From a virus (Duplodnaviria > Heunggongvirae > Uroviricota > Caudoviricetes), in IMG/VR virus record IMGVR_UViG_2541047861_000010, positions 1 to 39,308 of that record: a stretch of DNA of 39,308 nt. One strand, given 5' to 3'. The notes under the pieces are model-generated. The model ran no database searches, was not told where the DNA came from, and worked only from the letters and a program-made list of their open reading frames with translations. This document shows, piece by piece, positions 1-32,470 of the stretch. Each line of letters begins with the position of its first letter. The stretch's first letter is position 1. Position numbers and translations under genes: made by a program.

Positions 1-2109
1 TTACACCATACTGTTAACCTGGCCGGGTAATTCGCTAGCTGGAATACGAAAGGTATACCAGGCATAACGACAGCGTTTCCACAGGCTGGAGAAATGGAGA
101 TGATAAAGGAAATCTGCAATAATTTCGTTATCTGGATATAAAGACTCGGCAAAATGTGTCCAGCGCGCACTGAGTTTCATGTTAAACAGTTTTTCATCTT
201 CTTTGTTACCATACAGGCGCGACAAAGTAATCATTGCTTCGAGCGTACCTTTATTCGCTTCTTCTTGTACCTGTTGGAGGTGCAAATGAGCAAGTGAGAG
301 TTCTTTCACCTCAAAGATATTAAGTAAAAAAAGCCCCCATGCTTTTTCATGTCCAGCTTCATGAGCCAGAAATAAATTGTCAAGGAGATTTTTTTCATAA
401 ATAGCCCGTGTTTCTTTAGAAATTTCTTGTTTATTTAGTGCCTGGTAGCAGATAGCAATGCTAAAATAAATATTTTGTAGATCTTGTTGATGTTCGCTAT
501 AACCATAATTTTTTACCAGTGGATAAGATACCGAGCTATGGAAATTTAGGTCATCTTGAAGTATTTTAAGTGCCCGTCGAAAATACTCCAAAGCTGTAGA
601 TGGTTCATAAGGTAATTTTGTATTGTCTTCCTTATCCAAATATTCAAGAGCAACTAAATTTAATGCGGCAGGAATATTTCTTTGCTTACCAATTGTCGCA
701 AGCGGAATGAAATAATCAGAAAGGTCAAACCAACTCAAATCTTTTATTGCCGACCGCCAATTATGATTGTATTTAATGTCACTAGCTTTTTCCAGCCAAG
801 CATCGCCCTGCCCTTCATCTTTTTCAAAACCCAAAATACCCTCTCGCTGGAAAAACCCCCTATAAATAACAGGTGTAGCATAAGTTGTATTCTGTGAATT
901 TTGGCAGATAAAATTATATATCCAGAATGAATCTGGATAATAACTTAATGCAAATTTTATCGCGTACGCAGTGTAATAATTATTGAGCTTCATGTCTTCC
1001 ATCACCGCTCGCTGTATACAGCACCACAACTTATCGTGATCGTTCTGCTTGTTATAGCAGGCAAGTAACCACTCTAGGGCATTATGGCGACATTCCTGAA
1101 ATTGTGCGTACTGAGCAATATTCTCTGCTAAGTCGATTGCATATTGTTGCTCCTCGGGCGCAATGTCCTCAATGCTGACATCTCGGTAATCATCCCACCA
1201 AAGTAAGAGATCCATATAGTCATGTTCTTCGGTAGATAAGTGCTTACAGGTTACTGAATCCAGCAATTCGGAAATTTCTTTATGCGACCCTCCCCAGCGT
1301 GGCATTCGAAATGGTATATATTCAACAAAAGGATAAAAAGTGTGAGGAAAAATAGTCAGACAAACAGAAAGCCAATATTTTTGCCCACCATCATCATCAT
1401 ACTCAGGAAGTATATTGGGGCGAGGCAAAACGGGGCATATTGCATGCTCAAACGAAAGTCCGGAATACGCCATCAACGCTTCCACTTCTTGCGGGGAGCG
1501 GCGGTGATAATTTTTCAGTGCGATCATTAATGGTATTCCTGCGACACTATCACCGTTAAGGTGTGCCGCCAGCCAGGCTGGCTGACCAAATACTTTTGAG
1601 TTGGTGCTGGTAAGTAATGCAGCCATCCATTGTCGTGGGTCACAATCAATTGCTTTAAGTGTAGCGATGACCATTTGTTCATTACATGCACCAGCACAAA
1701 GCCACATTGCATGTGTGGTATCATTTGCCCAGCCATAACTGCGATATAACCATGCACGGTGATTCCAGTATTGTGCTTCGGCAAGCCAGGCATGTGTAGA
1801 ATGAGGTCTTGCTTGCTGCCAGGTTTTAATGAGTCTTAAACCTTCTGTTCCGGCATCAACTAGCGTGTTCATATCATAAAAATAGTTGCACATTTGGGTC
1901 CAGGATAAAAAATAGCGCTTTTCAGCCTGACGAGAAGTGAAACTCTCCTGTAATACCTGGTTATAAATTTCATCTAGTTCCTGATAACGTTTTTCTTGTA
2001 ACATATAAGGAATATTTGCGATTTGCCATTTTCTCTCAAGAGTATTAAGTGGCATTTTTTGGTCACACATCTTTTGCATTGCACTGAGTAAACGAGCATC
2101 CTGTTCCAT
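1..2109 (-). CDS. Hypothetical cytoplasmic protein, 702 aa, Trp/Tyr-rich; last gene of an AT-rich three-gene operon
   Basis: Full ORF 1-2148; start placed at internal ATG 2107-2109 (MEQDARLL) because AAGGA sits 6 nt upstream and this avoids overlap with the upstream gene. Stop codon is at window bases 1-3. No hydrophobic N-terminus. No family recognised from memory. Confidence 0.6.
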   Translation of the reverse strand: MEQDARLLSAMQKMCDQKMPLNTLERKWQIANIPYMLQEKRYQELDEIYNQVLQESFTSRQAEKRYFLSWTQMCNYFYDMNTLVDAGTEGLRLIKTWQQARPHSTHAWLAEAQYWNHRAWLYRSYGWANDTTHAMWLCAGACNEQMVIATLKAIDCDPRQWMAALLTSTNSKVFGQPAWLAAHLNGDSVAGIPLMIALKNYHRRSPQEVEALMAYSGLSFEHAICPVLPRPNILPEYDDDGGQKYWLSVCLTIFPHTFYPFVEYIPFRMPRWGGSHKEISELLDSVTCKHLSTEEHDYMDLLLWWDDYRDVSIEDIAPEEQQYAIDLAENIAQYAQFQECRHNALEWLLACYNKQNDHDKLWCCIQRAVMEDMKLNNYYTAYAIKFALSYYPDSFWIYNFICQNSQNTTYATPVIYRGFFQREGILGFEKDEGQGDAWLEKASDIKYNHNWRSAIKDLSWFDLSDYFIPLATIGKQRNIPAALNLVALEYLDKEDNTKLPYEPSTALEYFRRALKILQDDLNFHSSVSYPLVKNYGYSEHQQDLQNIYFSIAICYQALNKQEISKETRAIYEKNLLDNLFLAHEAGHEKAWGLFLLNIFEVKELSLAHLHLQQVQEEANKGTLEAMITLSRLYGNKEDEKLFNMKLSARWTHFAESLYPDNEIIADFLYHLHFSSLWKRCRYAWYTFRIPASELPGQVNSMV

Positions 2110-2119
2110 AGATATCCTT

Positions 2120-2836
2120 TTAATTAGGTTCAAAAATTTTAAATTCATTCCACGGCAATTTTTTCCAGTTACTGGATGGATCTTTCAACCATGCAGTGAC
2201 TTCCTTTAAATCACGGTTCGCAGTGGCGACGGGGGTATCGTATATCATTAACCATTTTTGTCGGGCGCGAACATAAGCACTGGCATAATCTTCCCATGAA
2301 GCGAAACAATCTTGTGCTCTTTGAGCATTCAGTAATAACACTATCCAGGCCTGGTTTTCATCGCACCAGCCTAAACCGGCGATGCAACGAGTTAAAAAAG
2401 CAGTGCGCATACAGTCAAACGCCAGCCCATCCAGAACCTGGCCTTGTGCTGCCAGTTGTTCGTAAAAATCATGTGGAGAATTACCAAGCCCTGTAGCCCA
2501 GCGCTGTAATATAACGCCAATTTGTTGACGGAAATCTTCGTTGCTTTGGTAAGTTTCTGTTCCTAGCTCTTGTTTAACCTGTAGTGCAAGTTGTTGACGC
2601 TTATCATCAGTCAACTTTAAATCTAACGTGAAGCCATTTACTGACAGTCCATTACGACGAGCAACTATATCACCAATTGCTAATGCCCACTTACGTCTCT
2701 TTGTTGCTCGTCTTTTGTCCTTGATTAGATCCTTTTCTTTTTCTTTAGCAATAAAAGCATCGATTTGTGGTTTGTTTTTTTTGTATCTATAGATAAAAAT
2801 AAATATTGCGACCAGGAGAACAATGATAAGACTCAT
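2120..2836 (-). CDS. Hypothetical membrane-anchored protein, 238 aa, single N-terminal hydrophobic helix
   Basis: ORF with ATG start; N-terminus SLIIVLLVAIFIFIYRY followed by KKNK looks like a signal anchor. Start overlaps stop of upstream gene (TAATG). Possibly DUF1266-like, unverified. Confidence 0.6.
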   Translation of the reverse strand: MSLIIVLLVAIFIFIYRYKKNKPQIDAFIAKEKEKDLIKDKRRATKRRKWALAIGDIVARRNGLSVNGFTLDLKLTDDKRQQLALQVKQELGTETYQSNEDFRQQIGVILQRWATGLGNSPHDFYEQLAAQGQVLDGLAFDCMRTAFLTRCIAGLGWCDENQAWIVLLLNAQRAQDCFASWEDYASAYVRARQKWLMIYDTPVATANRDLKEVTAWLKDPSSNWKKLPWNEFKIFEPN

Positions 2837-4050
2837 TATTTTTCAACCTCTGACAGGGGTAAGTAATGAGATGTCTGTAATGTCAAACTCTCTATCTCAA
2901 AGGAAATGTTGCTGATATTTTGACCTGCAAATTGCGGATGCCACTCAGCGCCAGGGAATAACATTTCCGCAGAAGTAGCAACTATAGGGTCAATAGCATT
3001 AAGATAATGTAACTTATCAGGTGCGCTGTGTAACAGTAACCACTGCAACTCCACTGAAGGATTTGTAAAATGTTCTAATAAATGAAAGTTATTATGTAGT
3101 ACGCTTAGTAAAAAACTGGTTTCGTATACTTCCGTTACATATTTCCACCCCTGATATTCAGGTGTATTTTCATAAACAATACCCATACCTTCACAATCAC
3201 TATGTCGAACTGCTTGTGGTGATAATAGTTGCAAAAGAGACAAAACATCGTCCGCATATTTTTTAACTGGATGACGATTTTGCTTACCTTTTATTTGATC
3301 AATTTCAAGTGAATCACCAACAACATTGAGAGCAATAGTAACATGAGGAATATTATTATTATCACGCAAACTGAATAACCGTAATTTATGTTGCTCAATT
3401 TGATTTGCATAATACTCACCATAACCACCGGTAAGATTTTTTCGATCATCAAACTGGCCTACGCAATGTTGCATATGCCATGATTCATAAGCCATTTCAC
3501 GACGAAGGTTCGAATGACTGGCATCAAACTCAACAATTTTTCCGTCTGGCACATCAAGTATTGACTTTACAGTATTTTGTTCACTCGGCTGCCACCCTTT
3601 CTCGCGTCGTTGAAGCATCTTTTCATGCTCTTCTTCACGCATTCTGAACGCAACGTAGCAGGTTATGCGCTGTAGTTTTGATTCCAGACGGGTACCACAT
3701 TTCCTGGAAAGAAATTCCACCAACTCCCGTTCTTTGGTTAATATTTGTTGATGATCGGTTTCGATATAATAAAGTGTCGCAGTTGATACTGAGGCAGTAT
3801 TAAACTTCGATACCAGCCATTCCGGGATTACATCATCATTTTTATTAAACAGTGAATATTCTGCAAGCGAGTTAATTTGTTGCACCATTGGAAAGTCACT
3901 AATTAGCCATCGATAAAAATGGTTGAGTAACCATTTTTGGATGGTCTCATTATCCTGGCGAAACAGACTTCTTTGCAAAATTGCTGTTTTTACTTCCGGG
4001 GCATTAATTACATCCCTTGCATTATAATTCTGGTGAATATTTCCAGTCAT
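2836..4050 (-). CDS. Hypothetical protein, 404 aa; first gene of AT-rich three-gene operon
   Basis: ORF with ATG start at 4048-4050. Hand-counted GC of a 60-nt sample in this island is about 32 percent, versus about 60 percent in a prophage structural-gene sample (23161-23220). No confident domain assignment. Confidence 0.6.
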   Translation of the reverse strand: MTGNIHQNYNARDVINAPEVKTAILQRSLFRQDNETIQKWLLNHFYRWLISDFPMVQQINSLAEYSLFNKNDDVIPEWLVSKFNTASVSTATLYYIETDHQQILTKERELVEFLSRKCGTRLESKLQRITCYVAFRMREEEHEKMLQRREKGWQPSEQNTVKSILDVPDGKIVEFDASHSNLRREMAYESWHMQHCVGQFDDRKNLTGGYGEYYANQIEQHKLRLFSLRDNNNIPHVTIALNVVGDSLEIDQIKGKQNRHPVKKYADDVLSLLQLLSPQAVRHSDCEGMGIVYENTPEYQGWKYVTEVYETSFLLSVLHNNFHLLEHFTNPSVELQWLLLHSAPDKLHYLNAIDPIVATSAEMLFPGAEWHPQFAGQNISNISFEIESLTLQTSHYLPLSEVEK

Positions 4051-4537
4051 AACATCCGCCCGTGTTTATTATATCACTCAAAGCAATAATTGTTGACTAT
4101 AGATTTTTTATCTAAATCAGCATGGTTGCAGGTACATACTCAAGTAAGCCACTCAAGAAAATAACGTAAACTCAATAGTGGCAGCGTCACAAACTTTGGA
4201 AATTATGTCTTATATTTGCAGTTTATTTTAGTGAATAATTGAGATAAATGACATTATTTTACATCCTCAATAATTCAGGCTGTAAGAGGACGGCAAATAC
4301 ATTCATAATTATCAGGGGATGAACATTCAGGAAAGTAGTCAGTATCGTCAACTTTTTCTTTTATCACTACATGAAGATTTCGTGTAGATACTCCCATCTC
4401 TGCCACTTCTCCCCTCACATTTACACTGGAGCTAAACCCGCCGATTGCGCTACAATGCCCGCCCTTAAAGTGGGGGCACTCCCCTAACCGCTTCATCAGG
4501 TGAAGCGGCTCTGACCTGTCATCAGAACGAGAGAATT

Positions 4538-5899
4538 ATGTTTAAACCGGAACTCCTTTCCCCGGCGGGAACGCTGAAAAATATGCGTTACGCTTTCGCT
4601 TATGGCGCAGATGCTGTTTATGCGGGCCAGCCGCGTTACTCCCTGCGTGTACGCAACAACGAATTCAACCACGAAAATCTTCAGCTCGGCATCAATGAAG
4701 CCCACGCGCTGGGGAAAAAGTTTTATGTCGTGGTCAACATTGCACCGCACAACGCCAAGCTGAAAACCTTTATCCGTGACCTGAAACCGGTGGTGGAAAT
4801 GGGGCCGGATGCGCTGATTATGTCCGATCCAGGGCTGATTATGCTGGTGCGTGAACACTTCCCGGAAATGCCAATCCACCTCTCGGTACAGGCTAACGCC
4901 GTAAACTGGGCGACGGTGAAATTCTGGCAGCAAATGGGTCTGACCCGCGTGATCCTCTCTCGCGAACTGTCACTGGAAGAGATTGAAGAGATCCGCAATC
5001 AGGTGCCGGATATGGAGATCGAAATCTTCGTTCACGGCGCGCTGTGCATGGCCTACTCCGGTCGCTGCCTGCTCTCTGGCTATATCAACAAGCGCGACCC
5101 GAACCAGGGCACCTGCACCAACGCCTGCCGCTGGGAGTACAATGTCCAGGAAGGGAAAGAAGATGACGTCGGCAACATCGTACACAAGTACGAGCCGATT
5201 CCGGTGCAAAATGTTGAGCCGACGCTGGGTATCGGCGCGCCAACCGACAAAGTGTTTATGATCGAAGAAGCCCAGCGTCCGGGCGAGTATATGACCGCGT
5301 TTGAAGATGAGCACGGCACTTACATCATGAACTCGAAAGATCTGCGCGCCATCGCCCATGTTGAACGCCTGACCAAAATGGGCGTGCATTCGCTGAAAAT
5401 CGAAGGCCGTACCAAATCTTTCTACTATTGCGCACGCACCGCGCAGGTTTACCGTAAAGCTATCGATGACGCCGCTGCGGGCAAACCGTTCGATACCAGC
5501 CTGCTGGAAACGCTGGAAGGTCTGGCGCATCGTGGCTATACCGAAGGTTTCCTGCGTCGTCATACCCACGACGATTATCAGAACTACGAATACGGTTATT
5601 CGGTTTCTGACCGCCAGCAGTTTGTTGGTGAGTTTACCGGTGAGCGCAAGGGGGAGCTCGCGGCGGTAGCGGTGAAAAATAAATTCTCCGTTGGCGACAG
5701 CCTTGAGCTGATGACGCCGCAAGGCAACATTAACTTTACCCTTGAGCATATGGAAAACGCCAAAGGTGAAGCGATGCCGGTCGCACCAGGCGATGGTTAT
5801 ACTGTGTGGCTCCCGGTGCCGCAGGATCTTGAGCTAAATTACGCGCTGCTGATGCGTAATTTCTCCGGGGAAACCACGCGTAACCCCCACGGTAAGTGA
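4538..5899 (+). CDS. yegQ: Peptidase U32-family protein YegQ (tRNA hydroxylation protein TrhP)
   Basis: 453-aa translation beginning MFKPELLSPAGTLKNMRYAFAYGADAVYAGQPRYSLRVRNNEF matches my recollection of E. coli YegQ in length and sequence; followed by cyaR as in E. coli K-12. Confidence 0.9.
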   Translation: MFKPELLSPAGTLKNMRYAFAYGADAVYAGQPRYSLRVRNNEFNHENLQLGINEAHALGKKFYVVVNIAPHNAKLKTFIRDLKPVVEMGPDALIMSDPGLIMLVREHFPEMPIHLSVQANAVNWATVKFWQQMGLTRVILSRELSLEEIEEIRNQVPDMEIEIFVHGALCMAYSGRCLLSGYINKRDPNQGTCTNACRWEYNVQEGKEDDVGNIVHKYEPIPVQNVEPTLGIGAPTDKVFMIEEAQRPGEYMTAFEDEHGTYIMNSKDLRAIAHVERLTKMGVHSLKIEGRTKSFYYCARTAQVYRKAIDDAAAGKPFDTSLLETLEGLAHRGYTEGFLRRHTHDDYQNYEYGYSVSDRQQFVGEFTGERKGELAAVAVKNKFSVGDSLELMTPQGNINFTLEHMENAKGEAMPVAPGDGYTVWLPVPQDLELNYALLMRNFSGETTRNPHGK

Positions 5900-5934: not shown

Positions 5935-5983
5935 TAGAAACCGATCACATACAGCTGCATTTATTAAGGTTATCATCCGTTTC
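5935..5983 (+). promoter_or_regulatory. Putative cyaR promoter region (candidate -10 TATCAT at 5971-5976; possible CRP half-site GATCACA upstream)
   Basis: Position immediately upstream of the cyaR 5' end; cyaR is known to be CRP-dependent. Motif match is by eye and weak. Confidence 0.35.
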
Positions 5984-6070
5984 GCTGAAAAACATAACCC
6001 ATAAAATGCTAGCTGTACCAGGAACCACCTCCTTAGCCTGTGTAATCTCCCTTACACGGGCTTATTTTTT
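5984..6070 (+). ncRNA. cyaR: Small regulatory RNA CyaR (RyeE), Hfq-dependent, with intrinsic terminator
   Basis: Sequence GCTGAAAAACATAACCCATAAAATGCTAGCTGTACCAGGAACCACCTCCTTAGCCTGTGTAATCTCCCTTACACGGGCTTATTTTTT matches recalled E. coli cyaR; ends in a hairpin (CCCTTACACGGG) plus U-tract. Confidence 0.85.
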
Positions 6071-6171: not shown

Positions 6172-6390
6172 TTACATCCACATAATTTGCTGCCCTGACG
6201 GCAACGGGTGCGGCCTTACGGCGTGGACTTCTCCCGGCTTCACGATGTATCGCTGTACCGACTCATAAGTGATGAACGTGGCGCTGCAATTCACGTTCTG
6301 GCACTGGTGATAACGCTCTTTTGTCGTGTCAGTGATATAGCGACTTGTACGCGCATGTGCGGCATGCTGGCATAAAGGACAATGAAACAT
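6172..6390 (-). CDS. ogr: Late-gene transcription activator Ogr (zinc-finger)
   Basis: 72-aa product MFHCPLCQHAAHARTSRYITDTTKERYHQCQNVNCSATF... with a four-Cys motif, matching P2 Ogr; start at internal ATG with GGAAGAGG upstream. Confidence 0.9.
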   Translation of the reverse strand: MFHCPLCQHAAHARTSRYITDTTKERYHQCQNVNCSATFITYESVQRYIVKPGEVHAVRPHPLPSGQQIMWM

Positions 6391-6471
6391 CGCGAGCACC
6401 TCTTCCGGTTTTGTTGATGGTGCCATTTTAGTTAATTTATCCTTATAAAACAAACAGATAAATAAAACATA

Positions 6472-11583: not shown

Positions 11584-12774
11584 TTAATTGCTGTTAACCG
11601 AAGTGACCAGATTTGCCAGGTATTTATCGGTAATACGCTGGCGCAGGGTCAGGTTTTCGAGAGGAGGCACCGGGGTATAGTCGTAGTCGATATACAGTTT
11701 TCCGGCCTTGAGGGTTTCCGCATCGTTGGATTCTTCGCTGAACCAGCAGGTCGCATCCACGATATAGCCGTTTGTTTTCAGCTCACGGAATTTGGCATTG
11801 ATGCCGTCAACGATGTCGCGAATCAGCGTTGCGGTGATGGGCTTGTCCACCGCCCACATGTGCGCCTCAGCCATCGTGTCGGCCAGCACCTGCGCGGTGC
11901 GGGTGTAGTTTTCAAAGAGGAACAGCGGGTCATCAGAGCAGGTACGGTTACCCCAGAAGCGGAAACCGTCGCGGCGAATCAGCGTTGTGACGCCTGACTC
12001 GTTCAGCAGGTCAGCATCGGTGCCGGACTCCTGCAAATCCCAGAATACAGATGCGCTGATGCCGGTAACACCGTTCACCCCGACGTTGGACAGCGTTTTA
12101 TGCCATCCCTGCTCCTGGTCGATTTTGGCACGCAGCCCCAGCGCACGGGCGGTGGCATACGCGGTGGCGGTGGTACTGGTGACCGTATCCCATGCGAGGA
12201 AATCCGGCCAGATGACCATCAGCTCACGCTGGCTGAAATTCTGGCGGTAGGCTTTCACCTCAGAAATGGTTTTACAGCCCCATGCGCTGATATACCCGAA
12301 AGCGCGCAGCTTCTGACAGACTGATGCCAGTGCGACGGCAACCTCTTTGGTGTCCAGTCCCGGCACACCGAGAATGCGCGGCTTAACACCGGTTACCGAC
12401 TCCGCCGCCAGCAGGGCTTTCAGTCCGGTGTACTGACCGTTTTCGTCAGTGGTGCCGATGATATTGGAAACGGTCTGCGCGAGTTTCGTTTCTTCATCGT
12501 CGCCGGTGCCGTCTTCCACACGCACGACAACGGTGACCGGTTTTGACTGGTCGGCGATGGCCTGCAACGATGCCGCCAGCGTGCCTTTTTTACCGGCCTT
12601 TGCAATTGCGCTCTGCACATTGGTAATCAGCACAGGTTTATTGAGGGGGAAGGTTTCCGCATCCGCATCGCTGGCCGTGCAGACCATGCCGACAATGGCC
12701 GTGGATACGGTGGAAATGACGCGGGTGCCGTCGTTAATCTCCAGCACCTGCACGCCGTGATGATAGTCACTCAT
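11584..12774 (-). CDS. FI: Contractile tail sheath protein gpFI (396 aa)
   Basis: 396 aa, MSDYHHGVQVLEINDGTRVISTVSTAIVG... matches P2 FI. Confidence 0.9.
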   Translation of the reverse strand: MSDYHHGVQVLEINDGTRVISTVSTAIVGMVCTASDADAETFPLNKPVLITNVQSAIAKAGKKGTLAASLQAIADQSKPVTVVVRVEDGTGDDEETKLAQTVSNIIGTTDENGQYTGLKALLAAESVTGVKPRILGVPGLDTKEVAVALASVCQKLRAFGYISAWGCKTISEVKAYRQNFSQRELMVIWPDFLAWDTVTSTTATAYATARALGLRAKIDQEQGWHKTLSNVGVNGVTGISASVFWDLQESGTDADLLNESGVTTLIRRDGFRFWGNRTCSDDPLFLFENYTRTAQVLADTMAEAHMWAVDKPITATLIRDIVDGINAKFRELKTNGYIVDATCWFSEESNDAETLKAGKLYIDYDYTPVPPLENLTLRQRITDKYLANLVTSVNSN

Positions 12775-12870
12775 CCGTTTAACTCCGTGGTTAATGGGTG
12801 CAACTATTTTCTGTTGGGCAGTACATGAGACGCTATTTGACCTGGCTGGTCAGTGGATGAAACAACAGAT

Positions 12871-12897
12871 AAAGAAAAGGCGGGCAATCCGCCCGCC
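12871..12897 (-). terminator. Rho-independent terminator after tail-fibre operon gene G
   Basis: Hairpin GGCGGGC-AATCC-GCCCGCC with a T-rich tract on the minus strand (AAAGAAAA on plus). Confidence 0.5.
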
Positions 12898-12902
12898 TGT
12901 AT

Positions 12903-13430
12903 TTATTGTGGTAGCTCCGGCCATTCAGGATTTGCAGGATCCACACGACTGACCAGAACGCTGTAGCGTTCCCATGCCTCCAGTCGGCTGCGCTCCTCAT
13001 CTGTTGCCATATTCAGCCTGACAGCGCGCTCCAGCGGCAAAATCACGGATTCAGCTTCGGAAAGCAAAGCTGCCTTTTTTGACTCCGCCAGTTGCTGCTG
13101 TTCGTCTGCCGTATAAATCCGCTTAATCACGGCACCGTCCTTAAACATCCATTTACCTGAGTCATCAGCTCGTCGGTTGGCGGTAATATCAGGGACTTCA
13201 ACGACGCTGAACCCCTCTGGATTAAGCGTTGATGCATCTTTGGTAATGGCGACAATAATATTATTCTCATCGTAAACAATCTTTATTGTGTCTTCCTGAA
13301 AATGCTTTACCTCTTCATACCAGTTTTTTCCATCCTCTGAAAATAACCAGATAACGTCGAATTTTTTTGTTAGTTGATATTGTTCAATGGTTTTCGGATT
13401 TCCTGACCTTATATTTTTTAAATGCTGCAT
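12903..13430 (-). CDS. G: Tail fibre assembly protein gpG (175 aa), composition-mosaic
   Basis: 175 aa in the P2 G position; the N-terminal coding part is visibly AT-rich while the C-terminal part is GC-rich. Confidence 0.85.
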
Positions 13431-13433
13431 AAT

Positions 13434-16214
13434 TTACACCTGTGCGACGTTATACCATGTGCCATTGATGTATTTTTGTATCGGTCTGAAGATGGCTTCA
13501 TCATCGCCATCAACTTCACCAATAATTCTTAATCCGGTAAGTGTGTGTCCGGCCATCTCATAACGCCCGCCACGCGCCATCAATTGAACAACACGTGTTC
13601 CCAGGCGAACATCCATCACATAACGCCCGTCGAAATTACCGTAGTTACTTGGCACAACTTGTCCGGCAACAGTTAATCCATGGCCAATAGTGACTCCACC
13701 AGTGGAATTCTGAATATAGAATGGCCTTAAACTACTCCATCCCCCCATACTGTCACCGGAGTTGGTCAACATGAAATGGGTGAAATTACCATCATTTCGG
13801 ATAAAGAATCCATAGTTCCCACATACGATGCGATAACCGTTTGCTGACCTTGAAACAACTTCCCCATCAACAGTTAAACCGCCTGTAATAGTGCCACCGG
13901 ATATCGGTAAAGCACCAACATCACCAGCGGATGGTTTATGTGCTGTCGTATAAAGCTGTGCCCATCCAGACCACTGAGCGTCATCTGTATCCCGCCTTGA
14001 ACGAATATATGCTGGTGCATGAGCACCGCTGGTTCCACTCCAGCCGATAAGTAACTCACCTTCTCCGGTTGCGGATACCCCCGTAAGATGAAGCACATTG
14101 CCATAGGCATAAGGGTAGCCATTGTTATATGCCTCATACATCTGAATACCAGGCACCCCCTTCTCACTCCCGCTTAATGCAGCAACGCGATTCCTGGATA
14201 CCAGCGTATTAATATTGATATTGCCAGAACCATCAAATTTCACGCCGTTAATTGTCCTTGCCGTTTTCAGCTTTGTAGCTGTAGCCGCATTGCCGGACAG
14301 TTCGCCTGAAAGACCGGCGCTGAAGGTTTGTTTCGCCGCCCATGTCTGAGCTTCGTCGATAATTGGCACACGTCTTGTCGTGATCGTGCGGCTTCCCGGA
14401 TTTCCTGAAATACGCACCATAAAAAAGCGGTAGTTGGCTTTACTTACAGTGCTGCGCCATACATGCATTGAGCGCCCCGTACCGGAATCATCACTCGGAC
14501 CAACTGCGATGTTTATCAGGTTGCCATCAATGACGCCCCAGTCCATACCGTCGGGAATGTGGGTCATGTTATCAAGCCGAACGGTTATCAGACTGCCCGG
14601 CACAAAGTCGTAGGTCTGCCAGTCCAGGCTGGAGAGTTTTGCCACAGCGCCACCGATGCCCAGATTCAGAGGCAACGAAAAGGAGTTATATACTTCTCGC
14701 CATTCGGTCCATTTGCTCCCGGCGTAGACGCGCTCAAAAGTGCGTCCCTGTGTGGTTTCTGATTTCCCTGTGGTTGTGTAACGCTGCCAGACAGACACAC
14801 CATCAAAACGTCTGATTACTTCCAGTATCCCAAGTAGTGTCGCGCCAACGGTGTCCAGCATCGGACCGTTTGTTGCCTTTCCTGTAACACTGTAAATACC
14901 GGGGTCGGTTAGAACATTTAAATCACCCTCGTAATAACGACTCTCTGACTGATGACCGATTCTTAACCACGGTTCCCACTGCGGATTTGATGCATCCCAG
15001 CTTGCCGCAAGGCAGCGGACATACATATTTCCACGGCGAGTGGTATAACGTTGCGTTCTTCCATAATTCCCGCCTTCGAGGATCTCAAGCGTCCCCTGAG
15101 CAAAGCCGCCTTCCTCTGGATAATTGCGTTCATATGAAGCTATAGCCGAGCTACTGTTACGCCATAAACCAAGATGCTCGGCGGCTCCAAGCGTATTCAG
15201 GTCTATAGTCGTACTCAAAGGGCGGGTAGCAGATTGAGTGTGACGCCATACGCCCCACGGACCATCAGTGCCATTCCACTTATTGGCGAGTTTACGCATG
15301 TATACATTGCCGTCTCTCGTGGTAAAGCGTTGAGTACCTGCAAAATTGCCGGCAGCAAAAACCTCAAGCACACCGACAGCATTATCTTCCGGGAAATTTT
15401 TCTCCAGTGTTGCGTTAGTTGAGGTAGCTTTAGACCAGATCCCCAGATAAGCCTTAACGGGACCAAATGTATTCAGGTCGGCATCAACCGGCATTTCGCC
15501 ATTGTTTTTCATAAACGTCAGGCTGGTAACGCCAACATTGTCCAGAAAAGCTGATTTATCCTGGATATCTGCACCGTTCTGATTTTTCGCCAGACGTGAA
15601 TTTGCGTTGTCATTTGCTGCCTTGACCGCTTTTGGCGTTGCCGCCAATGACTCACTGGTGCTGTTTGTTGCACTGCTTAACTGAGTAAAACCTTTTTCTG
15701 TCAGCGTGGCGTCAGGATGGCGGCGGGACTGCTCATGCTCTGCGATTTTGTCATCGACATAATCCTGAGTCGCCATCACCGTGCTGGCATCAATACTCAG
15801 TTCAACGGACGCCACGTTGCTGAGAATAATAACCATGCGACAGGTCTGCGCACGCCCGGAGCCTTCAGCCAGTTCTGGCTTATAGCTTTCTGCCATGTTG
15901 GATACCGCAATCAGTGTTCCGGCATCGTCATACAGACCAAGCTCACGCATCCAGAAGCCGCCCACTTCGGGCGGTACAACCAGTTCAGCCACGATATAGT
16001 TTTTATTCTTATTATCCACGCTGACTTTATTCAGAGCGTGACGCCAGACCTCATGCACCAGTTTCGTCTGACCGGCATCCGGCACCGGCAATTTGCCATT
16101 ACCATCACCCACGGCCATTGCAGACAGGTTTACTTTTTTCCCGCCGGGGACAGTGGCGGCTGCCAGCTTTGCGGCTCCGGCAGTAGTGATAACGGTTTTA
16201 AATTTCGTGCTCAT
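13434..16214 (-). CDS. H: Tail fibre protein gpH (926 aa) with P2-like N-terminus and divergent longer C-terminal receptor-binding region
   Basis: N-terminus [25 protein letters not shown]... resembles P2 H (about 669 aa as I recall); C-terminus ends ...[17 protein letters not shown], a tail-fibre tip motif. Confidence 0.85.
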
Positions 16215-16755: not shown

Positions 16756-17656
16756 CCGAGCCTCCGGTCACGACGCGGTATTCGGTACAGAAAGACGCCT
16801 GCGTACTGTTGAGTACGATGTCGGCCAGTGGTGCGGCCAGTTCGACACGCTGCACGCCTTCCACATGCAAAGCGGCATAAATGGCAGAAAGACGGATGTC
16901 ACGCCCCAGCCGGTGCTGTGCCGTGATATACGCTTCCAGTTTTTTTACGGCGGCAGCGCGGATGGGTTCGCTTTCGGGACCAGGGTAAAGGTAAAGCGTG
17001 GCGTTTATCTGATATTCAACAATGGCGGCAGACTGCACGGTCACGCGGTCGGCCACCGGCCTGACGTCCTCGCCATTAAGGGCGTTACGTACCACAGCCA
17101 GCAGGTCTTCGGATGCGACACCGTTATTTTCGCGAGACAGCACGGAGATGGTGACGCAGGCCGGAGACGGACTGGTGACAGAGATATCCGCGACACGCCC
17201 GTCGGCACTGCGACCATGATACTGATAGGCACCCACCGACCCGGCGACGCTTAAGCCCTCAAACGCCTGCTGAATACGCAGACGATAATCGGTGTCAGAC
17301 TCCATCACTGCCGGTGTCGGCGGGATAGTCGAATCATCTGCCGGGGTGATAATCAGGCGCGTGGTGTTGTAATTGGCACCAATCACATCAAGGTCATTAC
17401 CGGCGGCACAGGCCAGCATTACCGCCCGTGCGGCCTCATTCACACGCTGACGCCAGATAAGCTCACGATAAGCATTTTCCTCCAGCAGTTTGACGAGAGG
17501 CTCGGATTCCAGCGTCAGGGTACGGGCAACCGCCTCCTGCTGGTCTTCCGGGTAAAGGGAAATCAGTGTCGCCTTGCGTTCGGCAAGAATGGTTTCAAAG
17601 TCCAGCTCCTCGACCACATCCGGTGCGGGTAGCTGGTTCAGGTCGATAATCGGCAT
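16748..17656 (-). CDS. J: Baseplate wedge protein gpJ (302 aa)
   Basis: Length and synteny match P2 J. Confidence 0.9.
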   Translation of the reverse strand: MPIIDLNQLPAPDVVEELDFETILAERKATLISLYPEDQQEAVARTLTLESEPLVKLLEENAYRELIWRQRVNEAARAVMLACAAGNDLDVIGANYNTTRLIITPADDSTIPPTPAVMESDTDYRLRIQQAFEGLSVAGSVGAYQYHGRSADGRVADISVTSPSPACVTISVLSRENNGVASEDLLAVVRNALNGEDVRPVADRVTVQSAAIVEYQINATLYLYPGPESEPIRAAAVKKLEAYITAQHRLGRDIRLSAIYAALHVEGVQRVELAAPLADIVLNSTQASFCTEYRVVTGGSDE

Positions 17657-18692: not shown

Positions 18693-18710
18693 TGTATCAT
18701 TTTCGGCACA
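18693..18710. promoter_or_regulatory. Candidate Ogr-box dyad TGT-N12-ACA in the V/moron divergent intergenic region
   Basis: TGTATCATTTTCGGCACA read directly; it has the recalled P2 late-promoter dyad form. Its spacing to the V start does not fit the canonical -55 position, so the assignment is tentative. Confidence 0.3.
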
Positions 18711-18729: not shown

Positions 18730-19473
18730 ATGGATAAATATCAAATCTGGGAAAAACAAAAAGACACCATCGCCCATAAAGAATATTTAAAAATTTCCGA
18801 CACCAATTTACTTGGACATATACACATTGCCAATTATGAGGTGATTCAAAGTGAATTAAGCAAATTCAACTCTCCTGAAATTGTACTCCACTACTCACTT
18901 AATAGAAATGAATTAAAAAAAGAGAGCATAAATATATCAAGACATTTTCTCAACTATATCTCCTCAGCATTATCACTTAGAGATTCAACTCGAAATCTAC
19001 ATAAAATTAATGTGTTAAATATTGATAACATTACCAATAAATCCAGAGAAATCATCAATGAAGAATTTTTAAAAAATCCAATCATCAAATTAATGGAGGA
19101 TTTAAGAAACATCCTAACCCATCAAAAAATGATCTCCCCATTAATATCATCATTTATGCACCTCCAGAAAAAAATAAACATACACGGATTTGCATTTAAG
19201 ATTGAAACCATACTGGAGAATGACCGACTTTCTGGTAAATCAAAAGAATACCTGAAGTCAACAGAACAAAAAAATTTATTCATCTTGCCGATAATAGAGG
19301 AATACCAATACACAACTCTTAAATACCAGCACTGGCTTTTAGCTTGTATCCACAATGCTCATCAAAATACATACCCAGAATACTGGGAAGCAAGAAAAAA
19401 CATAATGGACGTCTGGGGTGGAGATATCCAACTAATACCTGAAGAGAGTGCCCTCACTTATTTGACCAGATAA
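18730..19473 (+). CDS. Hypothetical protein (247 aa), AT-rich moron at the P2 orf30 position between V and S
   Basis: ATG at 18730 with AAGGAG 10 nt upstream; hand-counted GC of a 60-nt sample is about 22 percent; opposite strand to all flanking tail genes. No recognisable domain. Confidence 0.7.
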   Translation: MDKYQIWEKQKDTIAHKEYLKISDTNLLGHIHIANYEVIQSELSKFNSPEIVLHYSLNRNELKKESINISRHFLNYISSALSLRDSTRNLHKINVLNIDNITNKSREIINEEFLKNPIIKLMEDLRNILTHQKMISPLISSFMHLQKKINIHGFAFKIETILENDRLSGKSKEYLKSTEQKNLFILPIIEEYQYTTLKYQHWLLACIHNAHQNTYPEYWEARKNIMDVWGGDIQLIPEESALTYLTR

Positions 19474-25886: not shown

Positions 25887-26059
25887 TGTCAGGAGTCCTG
25901 AATAGTGATTAGAGGAGTCAAATGTCGGCATCAGTTTCCCGACGATGCGCATCCTCCGCCATCAGTCCCGGATGGCTTATCACTGACACAACAGCACCTT
26001 AGCGAATCGCGGGGCGCGACTCAGTAGCCTTGCCGTGTATTCATCACGGCGAGGTATTC
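25887..26059. promoter_or_regulatory. Divergent late-promoter region for the O-side and P-Q operons
   Basis: Intergenic region between divergently oriented O and P, where P2 late promoters lie. No perfect TGT-N12-ACA dyad found; an inverted repeat CCGTG-N7-CACGG is present at 26033-26049. Confidence 0.4.
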
Positions 26060-29182: not shown

Positions 29183-30250
29183 TCATTTCTTAGCTTTCAC
29201 AACCGGATGCGCGCGATCATGTCCACCGCCACGATGCTTAGAAAATATAACCTTTTCATTAGTAAAAGGTTTTTGGCCATAGACACTATCATAGTGGAAA
29301 AAGACGTTCGGAAGATGAGGCACACGGATGAATCCATACTTCACTCTAGTATCACCGATGACCCCAAAAACCCTTGTACTTACTGGGTAGCATAGTTCAC
29401 CACAACGCATCACTAATTCATCTGCTGTTGGGCGTTCAGAAGGTTCCAATTTTAAACAATCTTCTATAAGTTTAATTATTTCATTTGCCAATGGCGCATA
29501 CTGTCTATTTGAAAATATAAAGTCAGGGTAAGGAACATGCGTGCCAGAAAGTATTTTTGGTATAGCCATATAACCAATACCAAAAGGGTATTTTCCAGTA
29601 AGAATCCTGAACATCATCGCACCCAATGCCCAAATATCTGTAGGTTTCGAAACCTTACCTTGACTCTGTATGATTTCCGGTGCCATATATGGCAAAGCCC
29701 CGATAGCCGTTTGCGAAGAACTAATTGAATCTTGACCATTTCTTGCAGCCTCATCAATTTCATCTCCGGCCATCTTTGAAATGCCGAAATCCGTAATTTT
29801 TATCTCTGTAGCATTGATACCACCGCCTACCATTATATTTGAAGGTTTGAGGTCCCGGTGTATGACGTCAACATGATGCGAAGCAGACAGAGCTTTAGCT
29901 AAATTATGAAATATTTTAGCAGTTAAATATGGATCAACACTTGAATAAGTGTCTAAAATAGCCTTATCCAAGTCAACTCCATCAATAAATTCCTCCGTTA
30001 AAAACTCTCTACCCTCATCATCAATGAAGTAATCTAAGGTTTTAGCCACATTAGGATGATTAACCCTTGATGCTAATATTGCACTTCTATGAAACCTTTT
30101 TTCAGCAGATTTATTTTTGGGAGTTTTGAGAGCCACATGCCTCGAGAGAATATTATCCATTGCCAAATAAACTTTTTGCATACCGCCTTCACCAATCTCC
30201 CTCAATATTGTATATCTGCTAACTTGAATTCCTGGAGTCAGATTTATCAT
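29183..30250 (-). CDS. Hanks-type Ser/Thr protein kinase with C-terminal cold-shock-like (OB-fold) domain (355 aa)
   Basis: Kinase motifs present: G-loop GEGGMQKV, VALK lysine, HRDLKPSN, DFG, APE. C-terminal 60 aa (VFGVIGDTRVKYGFIRVPHLPNVFFHYDSVYG...EKVIF) aligns by eye to the CspA pattern. AT-rich; start overlaps upstream stop (ATGA). Confidence 0.85.
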   Translation of the reverse strand: MINLTPGIQVSRYTILREIGEGGMQKVYLAMDNILSRHVALKTPKNKSAEKRFHRSAILASRVNHPNVAKTLDYFIDDEGREFLTEEFIDGVDLDKAILDTYSSVDPYLTAKIFHNLAKALSASHHVDVIHRDLKPSNIMVGGGINATEIKITDFGISKMAGDEIDEAARNGQDSISSSQTAIGALPYMAPEIIQSQGKVSKPTDIWALGAMMFRILTGKYPFGIGYMAIPKILSGTHVPYPDFIFSNRQYAPLANEIIKLIEDCLKLEPSERPTADELVMRCGELCYPVSTRVFGVIGDTRVKYGFIRVPHLPNVFFHYDSVYGQKPFTNEKVIFSKHRGGGHDRAHPVVKAKK

Positions 30251-31311
30251 AACACCACCTCCGGATGGGAAAGGTCAAATGTAATGAAGACCCGCTCTTT
30301 TCTTGGCCGAGAAGTCTCTCCCAGAATAATAACACATGAATCAGGCAAAATATTATATTGCTTTGCAGCTATATTATTCACATACACCTCACCACTTAAA
30401 CTCGATATATAAAACTCTGAACCAGAATATTTCACCTCAATAGTCCCGACCCCTGAATTATTAAAAGCCGCAGATTTATTTGTTGAAGAAATGATGACGG
30501 GTGGAGTGTTATCAGAGATTAACAATGCTCTATGAGAGTTGTAGAGAACGAATTTTTTTAGAGTCTGACACACATCAGCCATATCAGGTCTCTCACAAGG
30601 ATTCGTATCTAAACATTGGAAAAGCAATTCTTTTACCTGAGTTGGTAACTGTATATTAGAATTATCAAAAGGATTAGACAATAATTTTTTGGGTAAAACT
30701 CTCATTTCCGGTGGTAGTGGGGTCTTAGCCAAAAACATGGCCGTTACAGCAAAAGCATATGTATCTATGGATTTTGTAAACGCTACTTGATGTAAAAATA
30801 ATTCAGGTGCAGCATATGTTGGGGTTCCTTTAAAACCTATTGTATTAGCTTCATCAACATTTCTAGATAGTCCGAAGTCATAAATCTTCACTACTCCCTC
30901 AGAATCAATTTTCATGTTCCCAGGCTTGATATCCCTATGAATAATATCATGAGAATGTATCTCAGAAATACCCGAAGATATTTGCCACAAAATTTTAATC
31001 AGATCTTCAGAATTTAATATGCGATCCTCTACTTCCAATAATGAAGGTCCGTCAACATACTCTTCGACTATAGCAATTCCTTTACCTTGATAATTAATAA
31101 CATCATAAAGCTCTACTACATGTTTTGATCTTAATTTCATCAATGCTGATAACTCATCCATCATTCGAGGAGAATCATCAGGATTACTTATGGACTTTAT
31201 AGCGACAAATCTTTCGAGGTGAGTATCCAAGCATTTGATCACGCAACCAAATCCTCCCGAAGCCTCTTCTTCAGTCCTCTTATATCTTGCAGGGAGAGTA
31301 AAATTAGTCAT
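30247..31311 (-). CDS. Hanks-type Ser/Thr protein kinase with C-terminal FHA-like domain (354 aa)
   Basis: Kinase motifs present: GGFGCV, VAIK, HRDIKPGN, DFG, APE. C-terminal segment (SSLSGEVYVNNIAAKQYNILPDSCVIILGE) resembles the FHA signature. RBS AAGGAG 7 nt upstream. Confidence 0.85.
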   Translation of the reverse strand: MTNFTLPARYKRTEEEASGGFGCVIKCLDTHLERFVAIKSISNPDDSPRMMDELSALMKLRSKHVVELYDVINYQGKGIAIVEEYVDGPSLLEVEDRILNSEDLIKILWQISSGISEIHSHDIIHRDIKPGNMKIDSEGVVKIYDFGLSRNVDEANTIGFKGTPTYAAPELFLHQVAFTKSIDTYAFAVTAMFLAKTPLPPEMRVLPKKLLSNPFDNSNIQLPTQVKELLFQCLDTNPCERPDMADVCQTLKKFVLYNSHRALLISDNTPPVIISSTNKSAAFNNSGVGTIEVKYSGSEFYISSLSGEVYVNNIAAKQYNILPDSCVIILGETSRPRKERVFITFDLSHPEVVL

Positions 31312-32470
31312 CTTTATCTCCTTTAGTGGAGTTTTTCTCAGAGAATGAAATATCTAACTGTGAAATATTATCTAACTTATCATTATTGTTAGCTTCGATA
31401 ACATTCCTTCCCTCATCACTCTTTATATTACTATTTTTTTTCTTTGTACGTGATTTCCTTTTCGATACATTTTTTTTGTTAGAAATTTCATTACTGCATT
31501 CTAACTCAGTAACTTTTCTATCAATAACATTTTCAACCGTAGCTGAGTTAGGTATATCTAACGGCGCAGGTTGCACGCTAATTACTTTCATCTCACCAAA
31601 AGGATCCCATAAATTAATTACATCCCCAGATGATACATCCAAAGCACTTAGGATGTTCGAAATCTCAACTACCGCAATCGACGCATTATCAAATCCACCA
31701 AACCAACTAGCTAGATCTATAACTCTTTTAGCGAACACTCCAGTATTATTGGAGTGAGCATATAATTTTCTCAAATTATTACTGTCAATGGTATGAGCAC
31801 CATCTGAAGTTAATGCAACCACCCCAGGTACGAGCCGAATATCGTGAAAATGTATCTCAAGAACACCATCAAGACCTATAAACTGTACTAACTCGCCACC
31901 TAACCTAGAATCAATAACACCTGAGTCACTACCAAGATGCTCATTATATTTCTTTGCCAATACAGCTAATGTATCATCCTCACTAATTTGTTTTATGTGT
32001 TCAGCATTAATGGAATATATGCGACTATCCCCGACATTTATTGCTGTAATGTTATCGGAGTCATCTACAGCTAAGGCAGATAACGTAGCCCCACCGTTCC
32101 CATTATATACTTTCAAAACCGATTCATTTGCTTTTAAAACGGCGATTTCAAGACATTGTCTAATTGGCAAGCCTGAGTGTTTAATTATCTCGGTAAAAAA
32201 AGATGATACGGTCAATGAAGCAGCATTCGCTCCCCCTTCCATCCCCCCCATACCATCTGCTAAAGCGATGACAATCATGTCCTTATTCTTACTAAAAGGA
32301 CGAAATTTTAATACAGCTACCCGGTCTTGGTTCTCTTTCCTAACTAAACCTATGTCTGTAGCAATAGCTGCAGGTAGCATAGATACTCTTCGTACAGATG
32401 AAGAGATATTTTTTCTATGCAGCCAAGCGTGTATCTGTTCATGAAGGATCTCGTAAGAGTCTCGACTCAC
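31304..32470 (-). CDS. PP2C-family Ser/Thr protein phosphatase with Lys-rich disordered C-terminal tail (388 aa)
   Basis: PP2C motifs ALADGMGG, VGDSR and TSDG read in the translation. GTG start with GAGGAGG 4 nt upstream; 3' end overlaps the downstream kinase start by 8 nt (ATGACTAA). Confidence 0.8.
   Translation of the reverse strand: MSRDSYEILHEQIHAWLHRKNISSSVRRVSMLPAAIATDIGLVRKENQDRVAVLKFRPFSKNKDMIVIALADGMGGMEGGANAASLTVSSFFTEIIKHSGLPIRQCLEIAVLKANESVLKVYNGNGGATLSALAVDDSDNITAINVGDSRIYSINAEHIKQISEDDTLAVLAKKYNEHLGSDSGVIDSRLGGELVQFIGLDGVLEIHFHDIRLVPGVVALTSDGAHTIDSNNLRKLYAHSNNTGVFAKRVIDLASWFGGFDNASIAVVEISNILSALDVSSGDVINLWDPFGEMKVISVQPAPLDIPNSATVENVIDRKVTELECSNEISNKKNVSKRKSRTKKKNSNIKSDEGRNVIEANNNDKLDNISQLDISFSEKNSTKGDKDD

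Follow-up and report, generated by a model that had tools for sequence, protein, structure and literature searches.

The window analysed here, the full 39,308-nucleotide stretch of the viral record IMGVR_UViG_2541047861_000010, contains a complete P2-like prophage (roughly 6.1–38.9 kb) lying in an Escherichia coli chromosome. The gene order of the prophage, as seen from its open reading frames and their Pfam matches, is ogr-D-U-T-E-FII-FI-G-H-I-J-W-V ... S-R ... L-M-N-O / P-Q ... A ... B-cox-C-int, with the late genes encoded on the minus strand. Just outside the ogr end there is a CyaR/RyeE small RNA gene at 5982–6067 on the plus strand (Rfam RF00112, 100.7 bits, E 4e-19), adjoined by a U32-peptidase gene (4538–5899); because CyaR/RyeE lies directly beyond the ogr end, the prophage is seen to sit at the cyaR-adjacent P2 attachment locus. 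The chromosomal flank past the U32-peptidase gene (positions 1–4400) has a GC content of 0.33–0.44, with minus-strand genes for DUF4034, DUF1266 and PcfJ-like proteins, and this AT-rich segment looks like a separate horizontally acquired island.

An overview of the features at and around the junction between genes G and FI is given in Table 1. The local synteny is H-G-gap-FI-FII-E-T-U-D-ogr, with G and FI both on the minus strand, and the interval between the TAA stop codon of G (12903–12905) and the ATG start codon of FI (12772–12774) is exactly 128 bp long (12775–12902). The G protein shares 90–91% amino acid identity with the G proteins of P2, P2_AC1 and Yersinia phage P37. The GC content at 12801–13200 is 0.515 in the composition profile, i.e. 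the G-FI region contains no AT-rich island. A 2,901-nt stretch around the gap is 100% identical to E. coli FY26, whose RefSeq annotation places no gene in the G-FI gap. We note that gene H, to the right of G (13434–16214, minus strand), is one unbroken 926-aa tail-fibre reading frame with a tail-collar N-terminus, a fibre repeat and a Gp34_trimer domain; in the 100%-identical FY26 RefSeq record (L086 160–867) the 3′ part of H is broken up, being annotated as a 156-aa 'phage tail protein' plus a pseudogene fragment, which is probably an annotation artefact.

Table 1. Positions of the features at the G-FI junction, of the putative late activator gene and of the cargo found elsewhere in the prophage.
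Feature	Position	Strand	Basis
Ogr_Delta zinc-finger gene	6172–6453	-	Pfam Ogr_Delta, E 2e-21
FI, tail sheath (396 aa), first gene of the F operon	11584–12774	-	Pfam Phage_sheath_1, Phage_sheath_1C, Gp18_domIII_N
FI 5′ UTR with Shine-Dalgarno GGAG (12786–12783), 8 nt before the ATG	12775–12797	-	sequence
-10-like GAAAAT (12811–12806) and predicted PF start CAC (12800–12798)	12798–12811	-	alignment to the P2 start, 17626–17628
Predicted activator (Ogr) binding region of PF, TGTTGTTTCATCCACTGACCAGCCAG	12842–12867	-	alignment to P2
Predicted Rho-independent terminator of the V operon: hairpin (12898–12878) and T tract TTTCTTT (12877–12871)	12871–12898	-	
Spacer ATAC (4 nt) from the G stop to the hairpin; cargo cassettes are inserted here in relatives	12899–12902	-	sequence
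G, tail-fibre assembly (175 aa), last gene of the V-W-J-I-H-G late operon	12903–13430	-	Pfam Caudo_TAP, E 2.4e-34
orf30-position cargo (between S and V), 247-aa protein of unknown function	18730–19473	+	phrog_12680, E 3e-158
tin/old-position cargo (between A and Q), two Ser/Thr kinases and a PP2C-like phosphatase	29183–32470	-	

The G-proximal part of the gap is occupied by a hairpin, AGGCGGGCGGATTGCCCGCCT on the minus strand, with nine base pairs (seven of them G-C) and a 3-nt loop, directly followed by TTTCTTT; the sequence-only reading had placed a 128-bp gap with a terminator hairpin between the two genes, and both the coordinates and a terminator scan agree with it. The structure has the makings of an intrinsic terminator, being a GC-rich stem-loop with a U tract after the last gene of an operon, and it is retained in both the MFE and the centroid folds; on the plus strand it shows a weak resemblance to a terminator too. 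The scan returned three overlapping calls against 1.4 +/- 1.2 in shuffled sequences, and because this count is not significant on its own, better evidence for a terminator comes from the conserved position of hairpins of different sequence: a GC-rich hairpin and T run also directly follow the G stop codon in the divergent relatives L077, L078, L080 and L081, where the hairpin sequence differs. A hairpin lies immediately upstream of the late promoter PF in all 61 of the 61 non-invertase relatives examined, with 84% of the cells paired. A covariation analysis of 28 distinct sequences found little variation, with only two pairs changing on both sides and with shuffled alignments often matching this, and in the MAFFT alignment used for it four divergent sequences are displaced by one column. 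We take it as likely from these features that the hairpin terminates V-operon transcription.

The sequence-only reading was correct about the terminator hairpin but overlooked both the PF late promoter and the FI ribosome binding site. When the gap is read on the minus strand and aligned to the P2 record with its annotated PF activator site, F-operon transcription start and FI gene, nearly every base can be assigned, and about 100 of the 128 bp correspond to PF and the FI 5′ UTR. A spacer of 3 nt separates the T tract of the hairpin from the activator region, which matches column for column the P2 feature annotated as 'activator binding site; activation of pF promoter' (17555–17583), also of the form TGT-N12-CCA; in the window the TGT-N12-CCA core is at 12864–12847, with its dyad centre 56.5 nt upstream of the predicted start. 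Next are a conserved CAAATAGC at 12839–12832 and the -10-like hexamer, and there is no -35 hexamer. Promoters of the P2 late family have an activator element of partial dyad symmetry, of the TGT-N12-ACA type, near -55, together with a weak -10 and no -35. The putative PF of the window lies upstream of FI and downstream of G, combines an activator element with a weak -10 and no -35, and is carried on the same element as a gene for a cognate Ogr/Delta activator. A scan for the sigma-70 consensus found no complete promoter on either strand of the gap, as would be expected of an activator-dependent promoter. The leader of FI is 24 nt long and includes CACCCATTAACCACGGAGTTAAACGG, which is invariant or nearly so among P2-type relatives.

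By this alignment PF would start at about 12799 and would be activated by Ogr; the assignments of termination, start site and Ogr dependence all rest on homology to the annotated features of P2. A GTTGT-N12-(A/C)CA motif is also found upstream of V (18693–18710, GGTTGTGCCGAAAATGATACAAC) and upstream of O (25973–25990, CTGTTGTGTCAGTGATAAGCCATCC), and these sites presumably mark the late promoters PV and PO, while PP has no counterpart among the window matches listed. The TGT-N12-MCA pattern is not enriched across the window (30 matches versus 40.5 expected), and it is therefore position and homology that make the case for the PF activator site, and not statistics.

Several patterns emerge when the junction is compared with those of relatives. 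In 80 IMG/VR loci with an FI 86–100% identical to that of the window, the positions of G and FI were determined, and each locus was assigned to a class by the 170 nt upstream of FI. Among the 79 classifiable loci, 46 have a cassette flanked by inverted repeats with a conserved right flank, 16 have an invertase, ten are empty, with the hairpin and PF directly after the G stop codon, and seven are of other types. The empty-site relatives read CAATAA-A(T/C)A-CAGGCGGGC, and those with cassettes read CAATAA/GTTGTATGA ... CAGGA/CAGGCGGGC. One of the IMG/VR contigs (L010) has a junction near-identical to that of the window, with a 128-bp gap and a G protein that is 100% identical in amino acid sequence. 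The cassettes are 1.1–4.4 kb long with 32–47% GC and inverted-repeat flanks, and the close relatives that carry them have FI identities of 96–100%. Their proteins form 59 clusters, most of which were seen only once; those that PADLOC recognises as defence components include a type I-B retron reverse transcriptase and ATPase-Toprim protein (E 3e-106 and 2e-210), PARIS AriA/AriB, PD-T7-1 (E 2e-156), PDC-S15, a TIR protein and a DpdB-like protein.

Every cassette-bearing locus still has the hairpin, and the cassette ends at its first base. In a further locus, L007 (about 2.26 kb from G to FI), the cassette lacks the standard right inverted repeat, yet it too ends at the first base of the hairpin; in the stem of this hairpin a G-C pair has become A-T by a compensatory change. 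Either selection or targeting of the hairpin could account for the recurrent breakpoint. In alignment, the right flank of the cassettes shows a resemblance to the G 3′ end (CAATAAA versus CAAATCA) that might be a relic of it but is too weak to use. Neither of the two common occupied arrangements applies to the window itself: the repeats of P2-EC67 compared with the window by blastn-short match just 15–17 nt of the G 3′ end, there is no recombinase reading frame between H/G and FI, and the invertase probe sequence (see below) is absent from the gap.

The prevalence of these arrangements in E. coli was estimated by searching 5,426 complete E. coli genomes with junction probes of 80–86 nt (blastn, sensitive mode); a genome was counted when at least 80% of the probe was covered. 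The FI start and leader were found in 1,693 genomes, the cassette flank with the hairpin in about 963, the invertase 3′ end with PF in 603, and the empty junction (the G 3′ end with the hairpin) in 73. The empty state thus makes up about 4% of E. coli P2-type loci, which is a lower bound because the count of 73 comes from a probe that depends on similarity to the 3′ end of this particular G allele; about 54 of the FI-bearing genomes fall in no junction class, and one genome can hold several prophages. The comparison with P2-like prophages of the same species, by which it had been proposed to check the claim of an empty site, shows an empty allele that is real and in the minority. Deposited phages with the empty junction are Yersinia phages P37 and GMS190 and Salmonella phage STYP1, and matches to the junction probe at 78% coverage suggest that the Salmonella PSP3, SEN1, SW9 and FSL SP-004 group has it too, as judged by that probe only. 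The cassette junction is found in 61 deposited phage records, including Wphi.

With no cargo at G-FI, the accessory genes of this prophage are found at the orf30 and tin/old positions only, the slot between G and PF being unoccupied here. The composition profile reveals two strongly AT-rich islands in the prophage, at 18.8–19.6 kb and 29.2–32.8 kb, and none at G-FI, which bears out the proposal of the sequence-only reading that the accessory load is concentrated at these two positions. The reading frame at the orf30 position is on the strand opposite to the late genes, has a GC content of 0.29–0.38, and gave no Pfam or PADLOC match. The tin/old island, at a hotspot described previously (PMC9122126), has a GC content of 0.34–0.41, and its two kinases (Pkinase, E 5e-45 and 2e-42) match the PADLOC mad6 and PD-T4-6 models at E 1e-54 to 1e-50; the phosphatase (PP2C_2, E 5e-6) has no PADLOC model and corresponds to phrog_17277. 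The three-gene module is a candidate kinase/phosphatase defence system.

We conclude, with a probability of about 0.9, that the interval is a cargo-free G-FI junction of the P2 family, reduced to a compact regulatory joint. Transcription of V-W-J-I-H-G would end at the hairpin and T tract, 4 nt past the G stop codon, and the activator-dependent PF would begin 3 nt beyond the terminator. Activation of PF is expected to come from the Ogr zinc-finger protein that the prophage itself encodes; the resulting FI-FII-E-T-U-D tail mRNA would have a GGAG ribosome binding site in a leader of 24 nt. Between G and PF, most relatives have either a tail-fibre invertase module or an accessory cassette, the latter lying between the G stop codon and the hairpin.

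The history of the site is a separate matter, and the present role of the 128 bp is the same whichever way it came about. One possibility is that an ancestor carried a Z-region cassette with inverted-repeat flanks that was later precisely removed, such that the site is secondarily empty. The state of the site changes between near relatives, as prophages with G 77–93% and FI 99–100% identical in amino acid sequence carry many different cassettes, and cassette-bearing and empty loci are intermixed among near-identical FI/G backgrounds; cargo at P2 hotspots has also been reported to swap rapidly (PMC13586616). However, there is no trace in the window of either the 113-nt left or the 91-nt right inverted repeat, and no scar: the match to P2-EC67 breaks off at the G 3′ end and picks up again at 12900, which is two bases 5′ of the hairpin stem. 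Moreover, the compact order of G stop codon, hairpin and PF occurs with two PF alleles and several G alleles, in divergent lineages whose FI is only 87–91% identical (L077, L078, L080 and L081), and seemingly in Salmonella PSP3-type phages too. Secondary loss is therefore somewhat unlikely, and we favour the view that the compact order, seen across alleles and lineages and with no scar, is the ancestral arrangement.

A more speculative proposal is that the hairpin, besides its probable role as a terminator, is the target of a hairpin-directed insertion or recombination process that loads and unloads cassettes. Its basis is that every cassette examined, including that of L007, abuts the first base of the stem, and if it were true then the scar-free junction of the window would be either a naive target site or a precisely restored one. 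Selection accounts for the recurrent breakpoint equally well, since an insertion is tolerated nowhere but in the short stretch that separates the G stop codon from the terminator and PF. We regard hairpin targeting as improbable.

The sequence-only reading had named expression of a small unannotated gene or small RNA from the gap as what would overturn its claim, and the sequence lends such expression no support. Three mechanically called reading frames do overlap the gap, at 12794–12952 (plus strand, 52 aa), 12833–13000 (minus strand, 55 aa) and 12853–12966 (plus strand, 37 aa), and the plus-strand fold of the gap is slightly better than those of shuffled sequences (z = -2.0). However, all of the gap-overlapping reading frames of at least 30 aa extend into G, in another frame or antisense, and the short frames are not conserved across 11 other empty-site loci, where their frame, length or sequence changes or breaks; in L010, for example, one substitution cuts the 52-aa frame to 31 aa, and in cassette-bearing relatives the two halves of these frames are kilobases apart. 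No sigma-70-like promoter is present on either strand of the gap. The sense-strand fold gives a z of only -1.3, and when the flanks are folded with the gap there is nothing beyond the terminator hairpin that is clearly better than shuffled sequences on either strand. Searches with Rfam 15 at gathering thresholds over the whole window gave no match in the gap, and at E<=10 over 12600–13100 the best score was 22 bits against thresholds of 44–60, with none reaching half of its gathering score. Known elements account for nearly every base of the gap, and because the terminator, PF and ribosome binding site fill almost all of the 128 bp there is no room for a gene. A concealed protein or RNA gene on either strand is thus very improbable, and with no conserved reading frame, no Rfam match and no inverted-repeat remnant of a cassette, the statement that the Z/fun site is empty holds up well. 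An assembly or collapse artefact can be dismissed almost outright, as we found no evidence for one and the 501-nt junction is identical in two independent complete genomes (FY26 and NCTC11151), is near-identical in L010, and has comparable counterparts in 73 E. coli genomes and in isolated phages.

The compact G-FI junction is an ordinary finding and an already known one: the Z/fun site is a published hotspot of P2-like phages, described by Nilsson et al. 2004 as cited in bioRxiv 10.1101/2024.10.15.618418 and in PMC13586616, and sequenced phages display the empty state, which is uncommon but documented. The use made of the site is mixed, with defence genes, tail-fibre swaps and invertases all described (bioRxiv 10.1101/2024.10.15.618418; PMC13586616). 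The sequence-only reading was silent both on the published hotspot and on the empty state being a minority allele (about 4% of E. coli P2-like loci) that sequenced phages already show. Of the two classical P2 hotspots, this prophage leaves one without cargo, which matters little in itself. What it offers is a minimal G-FI junction mapped base by base, with terminator, PF and leader in 128 bp, and a cassette insertion point fixed to the 4-nt spacer that follows the G stop codon and precedes the hairpin. The empty junction can serve as a baseline allele for studying the gain and loss of hotspot cargo, and as a natural permissive site for engineering P2-like phages.

Comparison with known systems begins with P2 itself (NC_001895), which has the same flanking genes, with G about 91% and FI about 96–99% identical in amino acid sequence to those of the window. 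The two PF regions share the TGT-N12-CCA site, the -10 GAAAAT(A), the CAC start, and an identical leader and Shine-Dalgarno sequence; they differ in the spacer of the activator site (TTCATCCACTGA in the window versus GCTGTCGATTAG in P2) and in a 1-nt deletion between the -10 and the start. P2 retains a degenerate relic of the window's hairpin (GGCAGGTGAGCGAATTGCCCGCCTTTTCTTT) directly upstream of PF. The G-FI interval of P2 is 2,377 bp long, compared to 128 bp here, and contains fun(Z), as the sequence-only reading had stated and as is seen in NC_001895; this gene encodes 528 aa on the opposite strand, with its own terminator adjoining G and conserved cassette flanks, none of which is present in the window. 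In P2_AC1 the interval is 1,144 bp with another gene between the same left and right flanks as in P2.

The Z-region cassettes of the P2-like coliphages P2-EC30 to P2-EC67 (GenBank AJ512676–AJ512685), deposited in the original survey of the site, occupy the same locus as the gap, and the records AJ512676 and AJ512685 annotate the left and right inverted repeats of the Z region. The left repeat, of 113 nt, begins in the 3′ end of G, and the right repeat, of 91 nt, ends where homology to the window's hairpin begins. These occupied records consist of left repeat, promoter, open reading frame and right repeat, whereas the window has neither repeats nor cargo.

The invertase-type junctions, in which a Gin/Cin/Pin-like recombinase lies by an invertible tail-fibre segment, share FI, the PF core, the leader and the genome position with the window. 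They differ from it in having a serine recombinase gene of 197–199 aa, whose end lies 59 nt upstream of the FI ATG, and beside this gene a second tail-fibre/tfa segment in inverted orientation. At these loci (L005, L019, L032, L038 and similar, about 660–60 nt upstream of FI) the terminator hairpin is absent, and the 3′ end of the recombinase gene runs into the PF activator region.

The closest counterparts to the window are the deposited phages with the empty junction, whose recorded hosts are Yersinia pestis (P37 and GMS190) and Salmonella (STYP1). GMS190 and STYP1 match the empty-junction probe over 80–98% of its length. In P37 the G stop codon is followed by 5–6 nt, the terminator hairpin, PF and FI in a gap of 133 bp, with a PF activator-site sequence of the P2 type and a hairpin slightly different from that of the window (GGCGGGCTTATTGTCCGC).
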